From positions 124,001 through 188,000 of the forward strand of contig JABVCE010000019.1 of NCBI GenBank assembly GCA_014905635.1: 64,000 nt of DNA, given 5' to 3'. The position numbers and the translations under genes are program-made. Below, in pieces: positions 22,501-45,700 of this stretch (positions within the stretch are counted from its first letter, which is position 1; each line of letters begins with the position of its first letter). This DNA is from Scenedesmus sp. PABB004. Taxonomy: Eukaryota. Below the pieces are notes generated by a model, which worked only from the letters and a program-made list of their open reading frames with translations, was not told the DNA's origin and did not search any database.

Positions 22501-23680
22501 GCCCAGCACGGCGCAGGGCGGCACGCGCGCGCCGCCGACGTGCCGGCGCTGATCGCCGCCGCCGCCGCCGTGTCCGCGACCCCTGCCGCCGCCGCCGCAG
22601 CTTCAAGCTGCCGACGCTGGCGGCCGCGCTTGCGGGCAACTGGCCGGGCGACTGGCAGTGGAGCGGGGGGCGCAAGTGGGAGGAGATGCCGCTGCCGCGC
22701 GTGTTTGCAGACGCGGTGCTCCTGCCCAACGGCCAGGTGGGTGTGTGTGTGTGTGGGGGGGGGGGGGGGGTTGTGCGACGCCACGCGCAGCTCGCCGCCG
22801 CGCACGGCTGGCCGCACGCCCCCGCGCCGCGCGCAGCTCACGCCCCCCCCCCCCCCACACACACACACACGCACACAGATCGTGATCCTCAACGGCGCGC
22901 AGCGCGGCGTGCCCGGCGGCGGCATCGACGGCGGCTCGACCGCCAAGACGGGCGCCTACACCGCGCTGCTGTACGACCCGGAGGCCCCGGCCGGGCAGCG
23001 CATGACCGAGCTCGCCACGAGCGGCATCCACAGGCGCGCGCGCGCGCGCCCCTCTGGGCGGCGTGTGGGCGGCGCGCGCGGGGGGCGCGTGGGCTGCGGG
23101 GCGTGGGTGGGGGCTGCCCCGCACCACCGCACGCCCCGCACCCACCCATTCACTCACTCAATTGCTCACCCTCCACACCCTCCACACACACCACACACGC
23201 CCCGCGCTTAGGTACTACCACTCCAACGCCCTCCTCCTCCCCAGCGGCGACGTGTGGGTCGCGGGCAGCGAGCAGGGCGACTGCGTCGACGACTGCGCGT
23301 CCGGCGGCAAGGCGCCGCCCGACCAGGAGTACCGCGCCGAGCTGCTGCAGCTGCCGTACGCGTTCCGGCCGCGCCCCGAGATCACGGGGCTGTCGTCCGA
23401 CGCGTTGAAATACGGCGGCAGCGTCACGATCACCTACGCGCCGGCGTCGACCTACATCGAGACCGCGGTGCTCATCCCGCCGGGGGCCAACACGCACTCG
23501 CTCAACATGATGCAGCGCGCGGTGTTCCTCAAGGTCACCGCGCGCGCGGTGGGCAGCCTGACGGTCGCGATCCCGCCGTTCTCCGCGCGCCTGCTAAACC
23601 CCGGGACCTACATGCTTTGGATCAACACCCCCGGCAAGGTGCCCTGCAAGGAGGCGCGCTGGGTGCGGCTCGGGCAGTGA
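19549..23680 (+). CDS. Secreted copper-radical oxidase (glyoxal/galactose oxidase-like, CAZy AA5); multi-exon
   Basis: Signal peptide; AIHSVLLP, LFCAGH (Cys), RWYPT (Tyr), RYYHS (Tyr-His), NTHSLNMMQR (His, C-terminal Ig-like domain). Stop at 23678-23680. Confidence 0.9.
21003..21100. repeat. Intronic GT-rich compound microsatellite
   Basis: Repeated TGTGTTGGTTGTGTGTGT-like units. Confidence 0.85.
21277..21396 (+). rRNA. Complete 5S rRNA gene (120 nt) inside an intron of the oxidase gene
   Basis: ACGCTACGTCCACACCACCACGAAAGCACCCGATCCCATCAGAACTCGGAAGTTAAACGTGG...GGGAACCCCGGGTGACGTAGTGT matches the chlorophyte 5S pattern. The ends pair (ACGCTACGT/ACGTAGTGT). TTTT at 21407-21410. Confidence 0.96.
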
Positions 23681-24306: not shown

Positions 24307-31679
<7,373 letters not shown>

Positions 31680-37505: not shown

Positions 37506-39289
37506 GGCGACTGGCCGGCTTGGAGGCGGGCTGGGAGGAGGAGAGGCGGCGACCCTGCGAGCGGCGGCGGCGGCACCGCGGTGAGCTCGTCGGCCGCGGT
37601 CCCTTTCACCGTCCTGCGCCACTCAAGTGCGCTGCCGCGGCTCGCTGGCGGTCCCAGACGCGCCAGGACGGCTTTTGACCGGCTGTGCTGGCGGGTGAGT
37701 GCGAGCCCAGGTGGGGTCGCCGCCCGCCCTGCGCGCACACGCGCTGCCACGCCCGCAGCGGCCCGGATCCAGCGTTTGCATGCCCGCAGAGGCCTCCCAG
37801 CGCCCCCGCACCTGCTGGGGCGGCGTGGCCGAGCGAGCAAGGGGGCGGGCTGGAGGCGTGCAGGCTCCTGGCGGGCTGGGGGAGCCGGCCCCAATCGCTG
37901 GCTTGGCCGGAGAGGGTGTGGGCGGGCGGGCGGCGCGGGGGAAAGCCTGGGCGCGCGCCAGGGGGCATCTGTGCATTTTTCGGTCAAAAAGCCCCCACAA
38001 ATCAGGCGCGCGCCCGGCCGCCCTGGCGAGGCGCGGGACGTGAGCCTGGCAACCATCCGCTCCCTCTCGGCCGCCCAGGACGGTTTTTTGTTGCTTGGAC
38101 GTGCGGGTGCCATTGGTGCCGCCGCCGCTGCCGGGCAGCTGCCGCGCGGCGCAGCCCTCGCTGGTCGCCAAGCGCGCGCGGCCTGGCCAGAGCGTCAGGG
38201 GCGGCAAAGGCAGCCCGGAGCAGGCGCGGGCGAGCTCTGGATGCTCGCCGCCGGGCGGTGCTGGCGGCCGCTGCCGGGCAGCTGCTGGCGCGCCTTGCGG
38301 GCGGTCCTCGCGCCGGCGCGCGGGGCCTGCTGCGCGTCAGACACCACACACAGATGTCTCACCCCGGGCAGAAGGAGGCCTCTCGTGCTCAGGCGCGCCG
38401 CCGGTGCATCCACCTGGTCGCGGCCGCCGCGCGGTGTGGCTGCCGCCGGCGGCGCGGACGAGCGCCACGGGGCGCGGCTCAGCCGCTGCTGCCGGCGCCT
38501 GCAGCTCGTGCTGGCCAGCGTCCAGGTCGCGGCGCCGCCGGGCGACTTTGCGCGGCCAGCGCCGGCGGCGGCGCGGGCAATTGCAGTGGCAAGCGCCACT
38601 GAGCGCGCGCGTGTGTCCGCAGCGTGCGGGCGCCCTCTGCCACTGCCGCGCCGCCGCTCGCGCGCGCGCCGCGCCGCTGTGCTGGAACTCCCGGTGCCGG
38701 CGGCCCGCCCGAGTCGCGCCGGCTGGCCACGCCGCACGCCCGGCCCGGGGCTCGCCGCCGCCAGGCCCTGGCGCCGCGTCGCCGCCCAGCCGCGCCACCG
38801 CTGGCAGCCCCACCATCGCCACCGCAGCCACACAGACACCAGGAGGTCCGCGCAAGCTGACCGCCCTCCACCCCGGGCCGCGCCGGCGGCGGCGGCAGCA
38901 GCGGAGCGCCCGCGCCGCGGCGTTGTTCGGGGCCCAGGCCGTGCCAGCAGCTCGGTATCGGGCCCTGCCGCTCTGGAGCAGCGTCCACGGCCGGGCCGCG
39001 CGGCCTGACGCGGGCGCAGCCGGCGGTGGGGGCATCGCCCGCATCGCAGGCCCGCCCCCGCGCCAGGCGGCCCGGGCGCGGGGCCTGACGGCCCGGCCGT
39101 GAGGCCGGGACGGTGCAGGTGCGCTGGAACGCGGGCGGCGGCCGCCGGGCAGCGCGCTGCGGCGGCGGGCGCAGCAGCAGCAGCGGGCGAGCGCCGCTGC
39201 TGCCGCCGCGCGCAGCAGCGACGGTCTCCGGCCAGCCAGACCGGCGCTCCCACGCCAGGCCCGCTGCCTTGCCGGCGCAGGGGCGCGCC

Positions 39290-41834
39290 ATGACGGCCGC
39301 CGGCGCGGGCGCAGCGGCGCCGCCCGCGGCGCCGGCCGGCCGCGGCATCGCGGCGGCGGGAGCGATGTACGGCCTCGCCGGCCTGCTCTGCCTGCTGTAC
39401 GCGTCGGACGCGATACTCATCTCCTTCTACTCCCGCGCCTACGCCGACAACCCGCCCGGCAGCAAGCTGGTGCTGCTCGGCGAGGTCGCCAAGCTGGCCA
39501 TCTCCCTCGCGCTCATCTACGCCGCGCCGAGCCCCGGCGGCGGTGGCGCCCCCGGCGCCGGCGCCGGCGGCGCGGCGAGTGGCAAGCCGGCGTACAAGCA
39601 GCTTGACGCCGGCGGCGCCGGCGAGGCGCCCGCGGGCGGCGGCGCGTCCGCGCGGCCGCCGCCCGGCCGGCGCGGCGGCGCAGGCGCTGGCGGCGCGCTC
39701 GCCGGCGCGCTCGCCGCGCGCGCGTGGGCGGCCGCGCCGCGCTGGGCGCGCGCGGCCGCGCAGTTCAGCGTGCCCGCGCTCTGCTACGCGGCGTCGAACA
39801 ACCTCAGCATCCACGCGCTCTCACTGCTGCCAGCCTACACCTACACGCTGCTCTGCAACCTCAAAATCATCACCACCGGCCTCCTCGCGCGCGCGCTGCT
39901 CGGCCACGCGCTCAGTGGCGACAGCCAGTGGAGCCTCGGCATGCTCTTCTTCGGCATCTGCCTCGGCCAGTGGGCGAGCATGCGCGGCGGCGGCGGCGCC
40001 GCCGCGGGCTCTGCCGCGAGCGCGGCGGGCACCGCCGGCACCACCGGCGGCCTCGCGGCGGCCGCGCTCGCCGCCGCGCCGGGCGTGGGCGTGATGGTCG
40101 TCGTCGCGACGCTGAGCGCGACCGCGAGCGTCTACACCGAGTGGCTGAACAACCACTCGTCCTTTGCGCACGAGTCCATCAACGTGCAGAACGCGCGGCT
40201 CTACGCCATCGGCTGCGTGCTCAACGGCACGACGTACCTCCGCGCCGCGGCCGCGCGCGGCGCCGCGCGCGGCGCCGCCGGCGGCGGCCTGCGCGGCGCG
40301 CTGTCGCTGTCCGACCTGCGCCCCGTGCACTGGGCGGTCGTGGGCGTGTTTGCGAGCATGGGCCTCGCGACCGCGGCGCTCATAAAGTTCCACGGCAACA
40401 TAATCAAGGTCTACGCCTCGGCCCTCGCGATGCTCTTCGCCGCGTGGGCGAGCCAGCTCCTGCTCGCCGACCCGCCGCCGCTGCTGTTCTACAGGTGCGG
40501 GCGTGGGTGGGTGGGCGGGTGGGTGGGTGCGTCGGTGGGTGGGCGGGTGTGGTGGAAGGTGGGTGGTGGGTCAAGGGCAGGGCGACGAGGCGCAGCCACC
40601 GAGAGCGGCAGCGACTTGACCCGCCGCACCTCGGCCCCGCCGCAGCGGCGCCGCGCTGGCGGGCATCGCGACGGTGCAGCTCCACCATGCGCGCGCCGCG
40701 GCGCCCGCGCCCGGCGGCGGCGGCGGCAAGCCCGGCGGCGCCAAGGCCGGCGCCGGCGCTGGCGCCGGCGGCGGCGGCGGCAGCGCGGCGCTTCACCGGG
40801 CGTCGTACGCGATACTGGCGGTCTCGGCGCTGCTGGTGCTTGCGGGCGGCGGCGGCGGCCCCGGGGGCCCTGGCGGCGGCGGCCCCGGGGGCCCTGGCGG
40901 CGCCGGCGCGAGCGTCAGCGGCAGCGGCGCTGGCGGCGCGCAGCTGCAGCCGCTGCGCAGCTACGCCCTGTCTGACTTCCCCACGCTGCCAGCGGACGCG
41001 GCGCCGCCGCCGCCGGGCGTCGCCGCGCTGCGCTGCGGCGACGGCGGCGGCGGCGGCGGCGGCGGGGCCTGCCCCGCGCTGCGCTGCGCGGACGGGCCGG
41101 GCTGCGCGCCGGGCAATTCGAGCTGCTGCGCGCACCTGAACTTCAAGGCTCTGGCCTTCCTGTCGGCCTTTTTTGACGCCCAGGGCCTGGCCAACGACTG
41201 GGTCGTCGCTCACGGCACGCTGCTCGGCGCGCTGCGCGACGGCGCGCTCCCGCCGGCCGCGCCGCGCGCCGACGTCGCCGTGACCGGCCGCGCGCTGGCC
41301 GCGCTCGAGGGCCCCGCGGCGCGGGCGGCGCTGCACCGCCACGGCTACGCCGCGCTGTGCGCGGGGGGCCGCTGGCGGCTGTGCCCGCACGCGCAGCACC
41401 CGGACGCCGACTTTCGCGCTGCGATGGCCCCCGGCGGCGGCGGCCAGGCGCCGCCGGAGAGCAGCCGCGGCTACGTCGCGATGCACCTCCTGTGGGCCGA
41501 CCGGCCGCCGACCGGCCTTCGCGGCCGCCTGCGCTGGCTGCTTCCAGGCGGCGGCGGCGGCGGCGGCGGCGGCGCGGCCGCCGCGAGCTGGCGCGTGTGC
41601 CCCGGCGCGGCGGCGCTGCGGCTGAGCTTCGCGCGCTCCGCGCGCGTCGCCGACCTGCGCGTGGCGGTGCCGGACGACGCGGAGGCGGTCCTGGCGCGCG
41701 AGTTCGGCCAGCGCTGGCGCGCCGCCGCAGGCGCGGCGGCGAGCAGCAGCAGCAGCAGCAGCCCCGAGCGCGCGGCGCCCGCGTGCGAGGCGGCGACGGC
41801 GGAGCTGCTCGCCAGCCTCGCGGCTGGGGCATGA
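39290..41834 (+). CDS. SLC35A-type nucleotide-sugar transporter fused to a LicD/fukutin-like nucleotidyltransferase-fold domain; 2 exons (39290-40494, 40646-41834)
   Basis: Transporter motifs GEVAKLAIS, FSVPALCYAASNNL, YTLLCNLKIITTG, SVYTEW, NVQNARLY, IKFHGNIIKVYA. An in-frame splice (TAC AG|C GGC) leads to an extra TM and HGTLLGALRDG...ADVAV, VAVPDDAEAVLAREFGQRW. Confidence 0.8.
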
Positions 41835-42771
41835 GGTGGCGGCAACCGCGGCGCCGCCGCAGCCGCCCCGGCCGGGTGAGCCGCCGGGCTTGCGGGGGCA
41901 TCGTTTTTTGTGGGTCTCGTCTGTGAGCGTGTCGGTTCGGCGGGCACTGCTTCTTTCACGAACGCTGACGCCGGCAGCTGCAGCCGCGCGGGTTGTGTGC
42001 CGCCGGCGGCGCCCCAGCTGGCGGCTGAGAGGGGACCGGGACCGGGCGGAGCGCGAGGCATTCAGGGGCCGTTACGCCTCCGGGCCTGGCTGCAGTTGCA
42101 CAGCCCGGATCAATGTTGGGGGCAGTGCAGAGGCACGAGCAGCAGCAGTCCAAGATCCTCCTAACTGCAACGGAGACGCCGTGCGTGGCGCGCGCCCCGC
42201 CCGGCCGCATGGCCGGGCGGGGCGGCGGGGCGGCGCGCGGGCGGCGGGCGCGCGCGCGCGCACGCGACGCGCCCGCCGCCCGGCCCCGCGGGTGACGCGT
42301 GGGGTGTGTGGCAGGCACGTGGGTATGCCGTGGGTGCTCGCGCCGCGGTTCTCCTTGCGGCGGCCGCCATGGCAACGGATCAGTTGCGCAACTGGCATCA
42401 TGATGTCGCGCGCGGGGCGCGGCGCGCGCGCGGGCGCCGCGCGGCGCCGCGCACGCGCCGGCCCCCCGGCGCAGGAGAGTGCAGGCATGCGTGCCGAGAG
42501 CGCCGTGCGCGTGGGCCCGCGCCGCCCCGACGACGGTCGTCGTCGTCGTTGCAAGAGATTGGGCGCTGCGGCGCGCGTTCGGGCGCGGATCGCCGCCGCG
42601 CCAGCCCCCGCGGCCAGCGCGCCGCCGCCGCCCAGACAAGCTCGCGGCCTGGGCAGCCCCCAGGGCCGCCGCAGCGCCGCCGCCGCAGTTGTGCCCCCCC
42701 CCCCCTCCCCTCCCCCTCCAACGCTTATGAACACACACGCCCGCGCAGCAACCATGGTTGTCGCCCGCGCG

Positions 42772-45700
42772 TCAGACGCGCGCGCCCGCCTCAGCCGCGG
42801 CGGCCGCCTTGCGGATCCCGGCGGTGCACGCGTCGCACGCGTCGCCGGCCGGCGCCGCCGCGTCCGGGGCCGCCGCGTCCGGGGCCGCCGCGGGCTTGGG
42901 CGCGGGCGCGGCGGCGGCCGCGGCCGCCGCCGCCTGGCCCGCGAGCAGCTCCAGCTCGAGCAAGCGCTGGTGCACCTCACGGAACGTGGGCCGGTCAGCC
43001 GGCGCGGGCGCGAGGCACGCCGCCATGAGCGAGCGCGCGCCCTCGGGCAGGCCCGCCGCGGACGGCGGCAGCAGGCTGAGCAGGCGGCCGCTGGTGATGC
43101 TGGAGACGATCTGGGCGTAGTGCATGCCCGCGTAGGGCTTGACGCCGCTCAGCAGCTCAAACAGCAGCACGCCAAAGCTGTACACGTCGGCAGCCTTGGA
43201 GTGCGTCGCCTCGGTGATGACCTCCGGCGCCATGTGCTGCGCGTGGGTGGGCGTGGGTGGGCGTGGGTGGGCACGCAGGCGCGGCGGCGGCGGGGTGTGA
43301 GGGCGGCGGCGTGGGGCGGGTGCTCGCACAGCGGCGCGCGGGCGGCAGGCCCGGCGCGCGGGCGGCGGCGAGGGGCGGCGCGCACCGTGATGGTGCCGTG
43401 CGTGCGCGTGATGATCTTCTCGTTCTCTGCGGGCGGTCAGACAAACGCGCGTGAATTTGTGTGAGTTCGAACATGCGCGAGTCTGTGAGCCGCTGGCCGC
43501 GCCTGGCCGCCGCGCTGCGCGCGCTGGCACCACGCCCCCTCCCCGCGCACCACCACCCCCGCGCGCACACCACCCCCGCGCGCCCGCAGCCGCCGCACCC
43601 GGCGTGAGGAGGCGTGACAGCCCAAAGTCGGCGACCTTGGCGGTGAAGCCGCGCGCGTCGGGCCCGCCCGGCGCGACGGGCACGCCCGCGAGCAGGATGT
43701 TGTTGCCGTTGAGGTCGCCGTGCAGCACGCTCGCGCTGTGCAGGTACTCCAGCGCGGCCGCGATCTCCCGCGCCGTCGCGAGCGCGCGGCGCAGGTTGAC
43801 CTCGCCGGGCACGGGCGCGCCGTCGCGCGCCGACAGCAGCGCGCCGCGCGCGATCGCGTCGCTGAGCGTCCCCCGGTTGCAGTATTCGAGCACCATCCAC
43901 ACCTCCTGCAGCGGGCTGCCGTCGTCGCAGACGTCCACCTCCTGCGGCCAGCCGCAGCGGACGGCGCGGTGCGCGTCAGGCGGCGGGGCGGCGCCGGCGG
44001 CGGCGCCGCGGGCCGTCGCGGCGCGGGCTGCCGCCTTGGCGTGCGCCGCCGCCCTCCCAGCCGCCAACCCACGGCCTCCCAGTCGTCCCGGATGCCGCGG
44101 CGCGCCTGCGTGCAGATGTCAAACATGGCGACGATGTTTGGGTGCGAGAGCCGGTGGTGCAGCAGCGGCTCGAGGCTGCTCCGCGGGTTGGAGTCGCCCG
44201 CGACCTGCTCCAGCACCTTGACCGCGACGAGGCTGCCGTTCCAGTAGCCTGCGGGGCGGCGGCGCGCCGCGGGCCGGCGCAGCGCGCAGCAGGTTCAGAG
44301 GGCGCGCGGGCGTGGGCGCGGGGAGAGGGACGGAGGGAGGGCTGCGCGGCGAGGGGCGCGCCGGCCGGCGCCCGCCGGCGCCGCTGCCGCACCGCGGTGC
44401 ACGCGGCCGTAGGAGCCCCAGCCGAGCAGGCTGCCGATGGTGATGTCGGCAAAGGGGTTGTCCTCTGGCATCAGCGAGAACGTCGCCCGCATCGGCGGCG
44501 CGCCGGGCACGAGGCTGCTGCTGTCGCTGCCGGGGCCGGTGCCGGCGTGCGGCCCGCTGCTGTGGTGGCTGCTCCCCGGCCGCGGCGGGCCGCCGAGCTC
44601 GCCCCCGCCGCCGCCGCCCGCGAGCGGGTCGCCGATGGAGATGCTGCCGCCGCCGCCAAACGGCTGCGTGCCGCCCTCGTCGCCGCCGTACGCCGACGCG
44701 GCGCAGGGGAGGTCTACCATCGCCCAGTAGTAGTTGGCGGCGGACTCGTGGTTTAGCAGCGCGGGCGGGATGGACACGCTCGGCGCCATCTGGCTCTGCG
44801 CGCTGCTGACGCTGCGGAACTGGAAGCGCACGTAGCGCATGCCCGCGCCGCCGCCGGCGCCGAGGCTGCGCCGCCGCGCGGCCGCGGCGGCCGCGGCCGC
44901 GCCGCCGCCGCCGTCGGCGGCGACGCCAAACACGCCGCCCCCGAACGACACGGCGCGGCCGCCGTCGCCGCCGCCGCCGCCGTGCGGCTGCTGCGTCTGC
45001 TGCGTCTGCTGCGTCTGCTGCGTCTGCTGCGTCTGCTGCTGGAGCGTCGGCGGGTGGGCGTCCAGCGAGAAGCGCCCGACGCTGCTGCCGCCGATGCTGG
45101 CGCAGCTGCGGCGCGGCGGCGGCGGCGGCGGCACGGTCGGCGCTGGCGCGTGCGCGGGCGCGGCGCGGCGCGGCGCGGGCCGCACCTGCCGAGCGCGTGC
45201 TGCTCGAGGCCGGTGATGCTGCCGCCGCCGAGGTTGCAGGGGATGCGCATCTCAAAGTTCCGCCGCTGCTCCACCGCGAGCCGGTACGCCTGGACCTGCG
45301 CGCGGCGGCGGCGGCGCGGCGCGGCGCGCAAGGCTCGGCCCGCCGCGCGCACGCGCCGCGCCCGCGTGCACGCGCGCCGCGCAGCCGCGCAGCCGCGCAG
45401 CCGCGCAGCCGCGCAGCCGCGCAGCAGGCACGTGCCTGCGCCGGCGGGGGCGGCTCAAAGAGATCCCAAAAGTGACCGCCCGCCGCCATCTCGCGGCTCA
45501 CGCACGTCACGCGCTGCACGGGCGGCGGCGCGGCGCGGCGCGGGCGGCGGGCGTCTGGTGTCAGGCGCGGCGGGGGCCGCCAAGAGGCAGCAGCGGCGGC
45601 GGCCGGCGGCGCCGCGCGCAACAAACAGCCCAGCAGAACCCTAAACCCACGGCCGGGGTCTGGCGCTTCCAAAGCCCTGGACCCCACCTGCCACGCGTCG

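Follow-up and report, generated by a model that had tools for sequence, protein, structure and literature searches.

A nucleotide-sugar transporter joined to an FKRP-like domain in Scenedesmus: a candidate import-and-transfer fusion family with a probably non-catalytic member

Can a single polypeptide both carry a nucleotide-linked donor across a membrane of the secretory pathway and hold the enzyme that would use it on the other side? This question is raised by a gene on contig JABVCE010000019.1 of Scenedesmus sp. PABB004 (assembly GCA_014905635.1), of which we analysed positions 124,001 to 188,000 of the forward strand; this stretch of 64,000 nucleotides is called the window, and its numbering is used throughout. 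The gene occupies positions 39290 to 41834 on the plus strand, as do all features below unless stated otherwise, and has been deposited merely as a 'CMP-sialic acid transporter' (CMP, cytidine monophosphate). A first-pass annotation had read it as an SLC35A-like nucleotide-sugar transporter joined in frame to a domain with hallmarks of LicD and fukutin, and had proposed a module that imports a donor and transfers from it. Both halves belong to known families, and what is new is their joining. The best explanation, which we hold to be moderately probable, is that the gene belongs to a fusion family with an import-and-transfer logic and that the Scenedesmus copy carries a non-catalytic lumenal module. 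The gene model, the identity of both domains, the recurrence of the fusion and the substituted residues are shown here; the lumenal orientation, the class of donor, the coupling through CMP and the loss of activity are what we infer within this reading.

The gene model consists of two exons. Exon 1 (39290..40494; 1205 nt, translation P0001) begins with the ATG at 39290 and encodes the N-terminus, predicted transmembrane helices (TM) 1-9 and the first part of TM10, together with Gly/Ala-rich inserts; on exon 1 alone the Pfam family Nuc_sug_transp (PF04142) is matched with an expect value (E) of 4.1e-26. The intron (40495..40645; GT...AG, 151 nt) lies inside TM10, with the donor AG/GTGCGG at 40494/40495 and the acceptor CCGCAG/C at 40645/40646 (slashes mark the cuts). 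The last two bases of exon 1 and C40646 make up a split Ser codon, AG/C, and exon 2 stays in frame. Exon 2 (40646..41834; translation P0002) encodes the end of TM10, a loop predicted to be cytosolic, TM11, a Gly/Pro-rich stem, a Cys-rich loop, a domain of the FKRP/LicD fold and the stop codon, TGA at 41832-41834. The spliced product of 797 amino acids (401+1+395) is a 100% match to the NCBI protein P0003, 'CMP-sialic acid transporter 1' of Scenedesmus sp. PABB004, an entry that is itself annotation and not experiment. The GT-AG intron and in-frame two-exon fusion of the first-pass annotation are identical to this deposited model and colinear with many homologues, and the three peptides that it cited lie where it had placed them, at 40806-40847, 41211-41243 and 41661-41717.

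Two kinds of evidence, homology and codon signal, bear on the junction. The splice recreates a conserved motif, LLFY-x-G. On the spliced protein the Nuc_sug_transp match covers residues 156-410, spanning the junction residue 402 and reaching profile position 310, while with exon 1 alone it stops at position 293 of 315; the intron therefore interrupts the transporter domain itself. A BLASTP alignment of P0003 with the homologue P0077 also spans the junction, with LLFYSG opposite LSFYLG (40% identity, 374 columns, E 2e-73). The GC content at third codon positions (GC3), taken in the proposed frame, is 0.96 in exon 1 and 0.93-0.96 in each part of exon 2 other than the TM11 segment of 63 nt (0.86), with 0.95 over the FKRP-like domain. 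In the intron and the 3' untranslated region, third-position GC is about 0.7-0.8 and the periodicity is lost; since the intron is 151 nt long, the signal in exon 2 is shifted by one base from that in exon 1.

An open frame alone is no evidence in this region, because GC-rich DNA yields many of them. The GC content is 0.79-0.80 between 38 and 42 kb of the window, 44 stop-to-stop open reading frames (ORFs) of at least 60 amino acids in the six frames overlap 38500-42800, and the whole window holds 414 ORFs of at least 100 amino acids. Only 14 of these 414 passed the GC3 filter, both exons among them. A minus-strand ORF at 40404-42071 (555 amino acids), antisense over exon 2, failed the same periodicity filter and was rejected as a gene; the sense frame, mirrored in DNA this rich in GC, accounts for it best. 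Homology and codon signal together indicate that exons 1 and 2 are one predicted gene for one fused polypeptide.

Could the single polypeptide nevertheless be an artefact of gene modelling, in which the transporter really ends shortly after TM10, at an intron, stop or polyadenylation site that the model missed, while the FKRP-like domain is made as a separate product? The linker is low-complexity, GC-rich DNA, where open frames arise easily, and this is what speaks for such a view. Against this, residues 403-662 contain no in-frame Met, and a separate downstream gene would therefore lack a start codon in front of its membrane anchor. Moreover, GC3 stays high all along the linker, the TM11 segment excepted, both halves occur in one predicted protein in at least ten other sequences, including P0009 and the full-length P0077, and P0008 and P0012 run from TM9-10 of the transporter into the domain. 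We consider an artefact of this kind very improbable.

How widespread is the fusion? Word-indexed protein searches were swamped by the low-complexity inserts of the query and recovered no sequence but the protein's own, and an alignment query gave 7 matches. A HMMER search with residues 499-797 against 1.84 billion cluster representatives gave 68 matches at E<=1e-3, the protein itself included, and 33 at E<=1e-10; the identities of these homologues over the C-terminal part are 28-56%. A Pfam scan of 36 of the 67 non-self homologues detected the transporter together with the FKRP-like domain in P0006, P0009, P0037 and P0044, and the same fusion is found in P0076-P0080, for which PF04142 came from precomputed annotation and the sequences were inspected by eye. 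P0077 (717 amino acids) starts with Met and its domain reaches the end of the conserved region, while P0009 is predicted as a single protein on a contig of 3.2 kb. The BLASTP comparison of P0003 with P0077 aligned the transporter half only and gave no high-scoring segment pair for the C-terminal domain; P0009, a near relative of P0077, matches that domain in the HMMER search (E 4e-20). Shorter matches, among them P0005, P0008 and P0012, have their first residue within helices 9-10 of the transporter and then enter the domain, and because of where they start we take them to be fragments of fusions. Taken together, the predicted proteins indicate that transporter, eleventh helix, Cys-rich loop and FKRP-like domain are fused in at least ten other sequences. 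Four fused homologues carry the label 'probable UDP-sugar transporter A4' (UDP, uridine diphosphate) from JGI, which is a label and not a test.

The family has other forms as well. P0013 is colinear with the Scenedesmus protein over the domain (E 3e-28) as well as the transporter region (E 1e-8), and in P0004, P0013 and P0016 (825-868 amino acids) no Pfam transporter was detected at E<0.01; the Scenedesmus transporter half is much better conserved than theirs. In this branch both halves have decayed, the D-x-D motif discussed below having become x-L-H, and P0013 is still colinear and conserved over its full length. Perhaps proteins of this type are a 'pseudo-transporter plus pseudo-enzyme', as their sequences may be read. 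P0055 is a non-fused oomycete relative. A second kind of fusion is predicted in the metagenomic P0030 (521 amino acids), in which a Galactosyl_T domain of glycosyltransferase family 31 (PF01762, E 1.9e-10) precedes the FKRP-like domain in place of the transporter. No fusion of a transporter with a LicD or fukutin domain, nor any such enzyme in green algae, was described in the literature searched, with most subscription journals lying outside that search.

What, then, is the transporter? The Nuc_sug_transp match (39755..40670, intron included) reaches 91.9 bits (cut-off 27) when HMMER is run on the spliced protein, with E 5.5e-26 over profile positions 83-310 of 315. The closest solved relatives are the CMP-sialic acid transporters (CST) of maize (E 8.8e-16) and mouse (E 1e-7), with which the Scenedesmus protein is colinear over TM3-TM9; a simple hydropathy scan resolves only some of the helices. 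Compared with the fused homologue P0077, the transporter half is 40% identical over residues 32-403. The N-terminal half is thus assigned by sequence to the SLC35A-type, CMP-sialic-acid-transporter-like nucleotide-sugar transporters, as the first-pass annotation had it. Low-complexity inserts rich in Gly, Ala and Pro lie in the coding frame at 39520-39700 and again, after TM11, at 40848-40905, and GC3 is high in frame in both.

The pocket of this transporter can be compared residue by residue with mouse CST through the pairwise alignment at E 1e-7, which keeps the native numbering (K124, A105, Y214, K272 and S261 fall on the expected letters). Mouse Lys124, Asn210, Tyr214 and Lys272 correspond to K192, N301, Y305 and K373. 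A study of SLC35A transporters (PMC8192872) describes Lys124 and Lys272 of CST as binding phosphate, and Tyr214 and Ser261 as marks of cytidine selectivity, in whose place the UDP-sugar transporters A2 and A3 have Gly and Ala. Ser261 is matched here by A362, which is Ala as in the UDP-sugar transporters. At three places in the pocket the side chain is larger than that of SLC35A1, A184, A253 and G256 being replaced by V272, F354 and M357; small residues of the SLC35A1 pocket are reported to be bulky in SLC35A4 as well, limiting SLC35A4 to small donors such as cytidine diphosphate (CDP)-ribitol (PMC8192872). These residues are no more than a hint of a cytidine-type transporter with a narrowed pocket, since the alignment is weak and, of the two selectivity residues, just the Tyr214 equivalent agrees.

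The C-terminal domain is recognised less directly. Its segments are a Cys-rich loop (41070..41129), CPALRCADGPGCAPGNSSCC, with five Cys and one N-x-S sequon, and a predicted nucleotidyltransferase-fold domain of the FKRP/LicD type with a conserved C-terminal helix (41130..41831), which contains HGTLLGALRDG (41211..41243) and the further peptide cited in the first-pass annotation, VAVPDDAEAVLAREFGQRW (41661-41717). The first of these two peptides is the G-[ST]-x-L-G-A-x-R motif of the family, kept intact, and aligns with GSLLGAARHG of FKRP. NCBIfam gives just a weak hit, to the Mf1 cholinephosphotransferase model around this motif (exon 2 residues 184-214, E 0.073). Among the 36 homologues scanned, Pfam LicD (PF04991) was found in 14 at E<0.01, always through the N-terminal motif of the model, and its curated cut-off was reached by five (P0009, P0012, P0028, P0031 and P0055).

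Profile and fold comparisons are more decisive. When a profile of 49 aligned sequences (alignment A1) was compared with the PDB, human FKRP was the sole match at E<=10, with E 1.2e-5, and the T-x-D-x-D of the family fell on Asp360-x-Asp362-x-Asp364 of FKRP. A single-sequence AlphaFold2 model of the C-terminal 299 amino acids was poor (predicted local distance difference test score, pLDDT, 37); with the A1 alignment, the pLDDT rose to 85.2 and the predicted template-modelling score was 0.86. All 13 Foldseek matches of the latter model at E<=1e-3 were FKRP chains (best E 8.5e-6, probability 1.00), the next being LnuA at 0.05. By VIA-align, model residues 8-233 align with FKRP 293-487 with Z 13.0-13.5 and a root-mean-square deviation of 3.1-3.7 A over 164-172 residues, and the next family, ANT(2'')-Ia, reaches Z 8.9. 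In the ESM Atlas, 30 of 30 feature neighbours were LicD sets (score 0.95), and the structural neighbours included an oomycete LicD cluster (template-modelling score 0.65) and a chordate FKRP cluster (0.55). Alignment and model together assign the C-terminal domain to the LicD/fukutin-type nucleotidyltransferase fold, with FKRP as its nearest solved relative. The claim of a domain with LicD hallmarks thus stands as to the fold, which is closest to FKRP, and fails as to the Pfam LicD family, which is absent from the Scenedesmus domain even at E<=10. A missing LicD or nucleotidyltransferase hit was what the first-pass annotation had named as fatal to its proposal, and for the Pfam family this is nearly what we found; the proposal escapes only through the profile and fold evidence.

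The Cys-rich loop extends the likeness, as it occupies the place of the FKRP zinc-finger loop. Four of its Cys columns are invariant and the fifth nearly so (alignment A2), and in the profile alignment its CC pair corresponds to Cys317/Cys318 of FKRP. The zinc-finger loop of FKRP, made of Cys289, 296, 317 and 318, is reported to bind zinc instead of forming disulfides (PMC6965139). For this reason the conserved Cys of the Scenedesmus protein do not prove a lumenal location.

On which side of the membrane would the domain lie? SLC35 transporters have ten helices, with both termini in the cytosol. The Scenedesmus protein continues after TM10 with a Gly-rich loop containing His, Arg and Lys (40683..40805), predicted from charge bias to be cytosolic, and then with an eleventh hydrophobic helix, YAILAVSALLVLAG (40806..40847), whose Kyte-Doolittle profile peaks at 1.72 in a 19-residue window. 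There are three Lys/Arg in the 25 residues before this helix and none in the 25 after it. A low-complexity stem rich in Gly and Pro follows (40848..41069; GC3 0.93 in frame), whose sequence is not conserved among homologues; a near-exact direct duplication in the stem (40848-40905) encodes GGGGPGGPGG twice. Given ten helices with cytosolic ends, an eleventh would place the FKRP-like domain in the lumen, and this is the orientation that the sequence suggests.

The extra helix that the first-pass annotation had noticed after TM10 recurs in the family. In a survey of 45 sequences whose Cys motif lies at least 60 residues from the start, with a helix defined as a 19-mer of Kyte-Doolittle value >=1.6, such a helix was found 41-140 residues before the Cys motif in 40, and in most homologues it is much more hydrophobic (2.0-2.7). 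The Lys and Arg before the helix outnumber those after it in 25 of these 40, equal them in 7 and are fewer in 8. An N-x-S/T sequon lies within the Cys motif in 30 of the 40. Four sequences, P0017, P0035, P0061 and P0062, have a single N-terminal anchor helix ahead of the domain, which is the layout of a type II lumenal protein, and some of them may be truncated.

Perhaps the eleventh stretch does not span the membrane, and the FKRP-like domain acts on, or senses, nucleotide donors in the cytosol. The modest peak of a helix that is rich in Ala and Gly would fit such an arrangement, as would the 15 homologues with a reversed or equal charge balance, and the zinc-binding Cys4 loop of FKRP removes the Cys as proof of a lumenal site. 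Set against these are the recurrence of the helix, mostly in a far more hydrophobic form, the frequent sequon in the Cys motif, the type II layout of the four anchored sequences (some perhaps truncated) and the report that FKRP and fukutin act in the Golgi lumen (PMC8192872). We therefore regard a cytosolic domain as quite improbable, and continue with a lumenal one.

Is the lumenal domain an enzyme? In FKRP the catalytic metal is reported to be held by Asp362, Asp364 and Asp416, and each of the substitutions D360A, D362A, D364A and D416A leaves the enzyme inactive or crippled (PMC6965139). At the D-x-D motif (FKRP Asp362-x-Asp364) the Scenedesmus protein reads R609-A610-D611 (41265..41273), with the first Asp lost, in both the ungapped homologue alignment and the FKRP profile alignment. 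In A1 the Asp362 column holds Asp in 35 of 46 covering rows and Arg609 here; the Asp364 column holds Asp in most rows and Glu in one, and is kept here as Asp611; the Asp360 column holds Thr in most rows and Ala607 here. The alignment around Arg609 is secure, because it is ungapped over 95 residues from the Cys motif to the HGYA motif. A680 (41478..41480), in the strand GYVAMHLLW, is the presumed equivalent of Asp416, a position filled by Asp (Y-x-D) in 31 of the 42 homologues that cover it; A680 precedes His682, which is common to a group of degenerate homologues. Ten other A1 rows are without Asp in the Asp362 column. Among them, P0004, P0010, P0013 and P0016 retain neither Asp of the D-x-D pair, and P0018 and P0033 are similar to the Scenedesmus copy. 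What the Scenedesmus domain keeps is G-T-x-L-G-A-x-R, Asp611, the Cys loop, WRLCPH..HP and the C-terminal PDDAE...FGQRW.

A quick tree was built from 38 rows: of the 49 in A1, 13 were dropped for less than 80% coverage of core columns, and P0076 and P0077 were added. In it the 29 intact-type rows form a clade, with a value of 91 in the SH-like approximate likelihood ratio test (SH-aLRT), and the Scenedesmus sequence falls outside, with the degenerate ones, in a placement that lacks support.

These substitutions make the Scenedesmus domain a probably non-catalytic or altered variant, as far as its residues can tell. Active channelling of a donor is doubtful for this gene because R609 and A680 replace Asp residues that FKRP needs; the import-and-transfer module of the first-pass annotation fits the intact members, such as P0077, much better than the gene for which it was proposed. 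Could that proposal still hold in full, the domain being active through a non-canonical site (Asp611 with His682, or others), so that one polypeptide both imports and transfers? The motifs listed above are retained, the 40% identity of the transporter to that of an intact-type fusion argues for selection on the whole protein, and the GC3 of 0.95 shows a domain still coding under codon bias; in addition, the x-L/M-H-x-x-W variant is common to a group of homologues, which suggests a conserved alternative and not decay. It is difficult to reconcile this with the inactivity reported for D362A and D416A in FKRP (PMC6965139), with the dependence of nucleotidyltransferase-fold catalysis on these carboxylates, or with the retention of Asp in most covering homologues at the two positions where Arg and Ala stand here. 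Furthermore, the closest degenerate relatives, P0004, P0013 and P0016, have lost the motif further and show no detectable Pfam nucleotide-sugar transporter signature. An active Scenedesmus enzyme is in our judgement rather unlikely.

The best explanation, a fusion family in which the Scenedesmus member has become non-catalytic, can be put as a mechanism. Residues 1 to about 415 would form the nucleotide-sugar antiporter of an 11-helix membrane protein of the secretory pathway. The basic, Gly-rich cytosolic loop and the eleventh helix would take the chain back across the membrane, and the flexible Gly/Pro stem, the Cys-rich loop and the FKRP/LicD-fold domain would then face the lumen. In intact members the transporter would import a cytidine-linked donor (CDP-ribitol, CDP-glycerol, CDP-choline or a CMP-sugar), the tethered transferase would place the phospho-alcohol on a lumenal glycan and thereby free CMP, and the freed CMP would serve as counter-substrate and drive the next round of import. 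CMP-type SLC35A antiporters usually exchange their substrate for CMP. In line with the release step, FKRP crystals soaked with CDP-ribitol and Mg are reported to keep only CMP (PMC6965139). In the Scenedesmus copy the transporter probably works, and the domain is most likely incapable of canonical two-metal phosphotransfer; it may serve as a non-catalytic module that binds donor, CMP or acceptor, or that pairs with an intact paralogue.

Several points weigh against this reading. The gene model is a prediction from sequence. Pfam LicD gives no match at E<=10 with exon 2 or with residues 554-797, and none at E<=1 with the whole protein. Because the Ser261 equivalent is Ala, as in UDP-sugar transporters, a cytidine-linked donor is a tentative assignment. 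The hydropathy peak of TM11 is modest, and the charge bias around it is a majority trend, with 8 of the 40 homologues reversed. Intact members have Thr at the Asp360 position, and the family may thus not follow FKRP chemistry closely. The equation of A680 with Asp416 comes from strand order and spacing in the model (strands 72-78 and 141-149), and the variant site with His682 could still work. In the tree the Scenedesmus sequence stands beside a very long branch, P0049, in a placement that is unsupported and flagged for composition, and which we do not rely on. Finally, nearly all homologues come from assemblies of metagenomes or sequencing runs, and to call them 'algal' is an extrapolation.

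The neighbouring genes suggest no functional cluster. Directly downstream, on the minus strand at 42772-44118, is an ORF with a protein kinase match (PK_Tyr_Ser-Thr E 1.6e-33, Pkinase E 3.8e-28) in two stretches, probably because the domain is split by an intron or a low-complexity insert. Upstream, the two halves of a Cation_ATPase_C domain (E 1.1e-17 and 3.4e-17) at 30400-30780 and 31212-31676 suggest the exons of a gene for a P-type cation ATPase. An ORF at 23006-23677 has a galactose-oxidase-like early-set domain (PF09118, E 2.8e-17) and is possibly a secreted enzyme of the glyoxal/galactose oxidase type.

What would the fusion mean? A role of SLC35A1 and SLC35A4 in the supply of CDP-ribitol, to which the first-pass annotation had appealed, is in print: the need of mammalian FKRP and fukutin for CDP-ribitol imported by these two transporters was worked out in 2021 (PMC8192872). 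A conserved fusion in another eukaryotic lineage would be independent evolutionary evidence for the partnership of SLC35A1/A4 with FKRP and fukutin and, if the reading is true, a natural 'Rosetta stone' for this pairing. It suggests a direct coupling, in which the antiporter would be supplied with CMP from the transferase reaction, and also that algal glycans carry phosphodiester modifications not yet known. Its degenerate active site makes the Scenedesmus domain a candidate pseudoenzyme tethered to a transporter. Searches by domain architecture would not show the fusion, because Pfam LicD misses or under-scores most such proteins. More speculatively, one may propose an undescribed, old fusion family of green algae, and perhaps of other protists, that implies decoration of glycans with ribitol-, glycerol- or choline-phosphate, and in which the branch of this gene has a lumenal domain that no longer catalyses but serves as a sensor of CMP, donor or acceptor, gating or localising the transporter to which it is joined; taken as a whole, this proposal is tentative, and we would not expect all of it to hold.

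How does the protein compare with known systems? Human fukutin-related protein (FKRP; PDB 6KAJ-6KAN), an enzyme associated with muscular dystrophy, transfers ribitol-phosphate from CDP-ribitol to glycans in the Golgi. It is the sole strong structural and profile match to the C-terminal domain (Z 13.5, Foldseek E 8.5e-6, profile E 1.2e-5), with the G-[ST]-LLGA-R motif, a strand bearing D-x-D in the same place and a Cys-rich loop that ends in CC ahead of the catalytic core. It differs in that sequence identity is just 13-16%, and in its type II anchor and stem, where the Scenedesmus protein has a polytopic transporter followed by TM11 and a Gly-rich stem, no Pfam FKRP_N stem having been found here. 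The Scenedesmus Cys loop is shorter and differently spaced, with five Cys in 20 residues where that of FKRP extends from 289 to 318, and the equivalents of Asp360, Asp362 and, presumptively, Asp416 are Ala, Arg and Ala.

With the LicD family (PF04991), which comprises bacterial phosphocholine and teichoic-acid phosphotransferases and fukutin, the domain shares the nucleotidyltransferase-fold core, and the C-terminal P-x-N/D-x-E...YG..W motif of the Scenedesmus family is one that we take to resemble the LicD C-terminus. The Scenedesmus protein differs from it in having no Pfam LicD match, as do most of its homologues in staying below the cut-off (5 of 36 reach it). The family forms a distinct, FKRP-like branch that bears a Cys loop.

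On the transporter side, the protein resembles SLC35A1, SLC35A4 and CST in its PF04142 domain, in having maize and mouse CST as best PDB matches, and in keeping the Lys pair and the Tyr214 equivalent, while V272, F354 and M357 recall the narrowed pocket of SLC35A4. It departs from them in the Ala at the Ser261 position and in its long Gly/Ala inserts. The largest departure lies in the layout of the whole, for in mammals transporter and transferase are separate proteins, whereas in Scenedesmus the two are predicted to be one chain.

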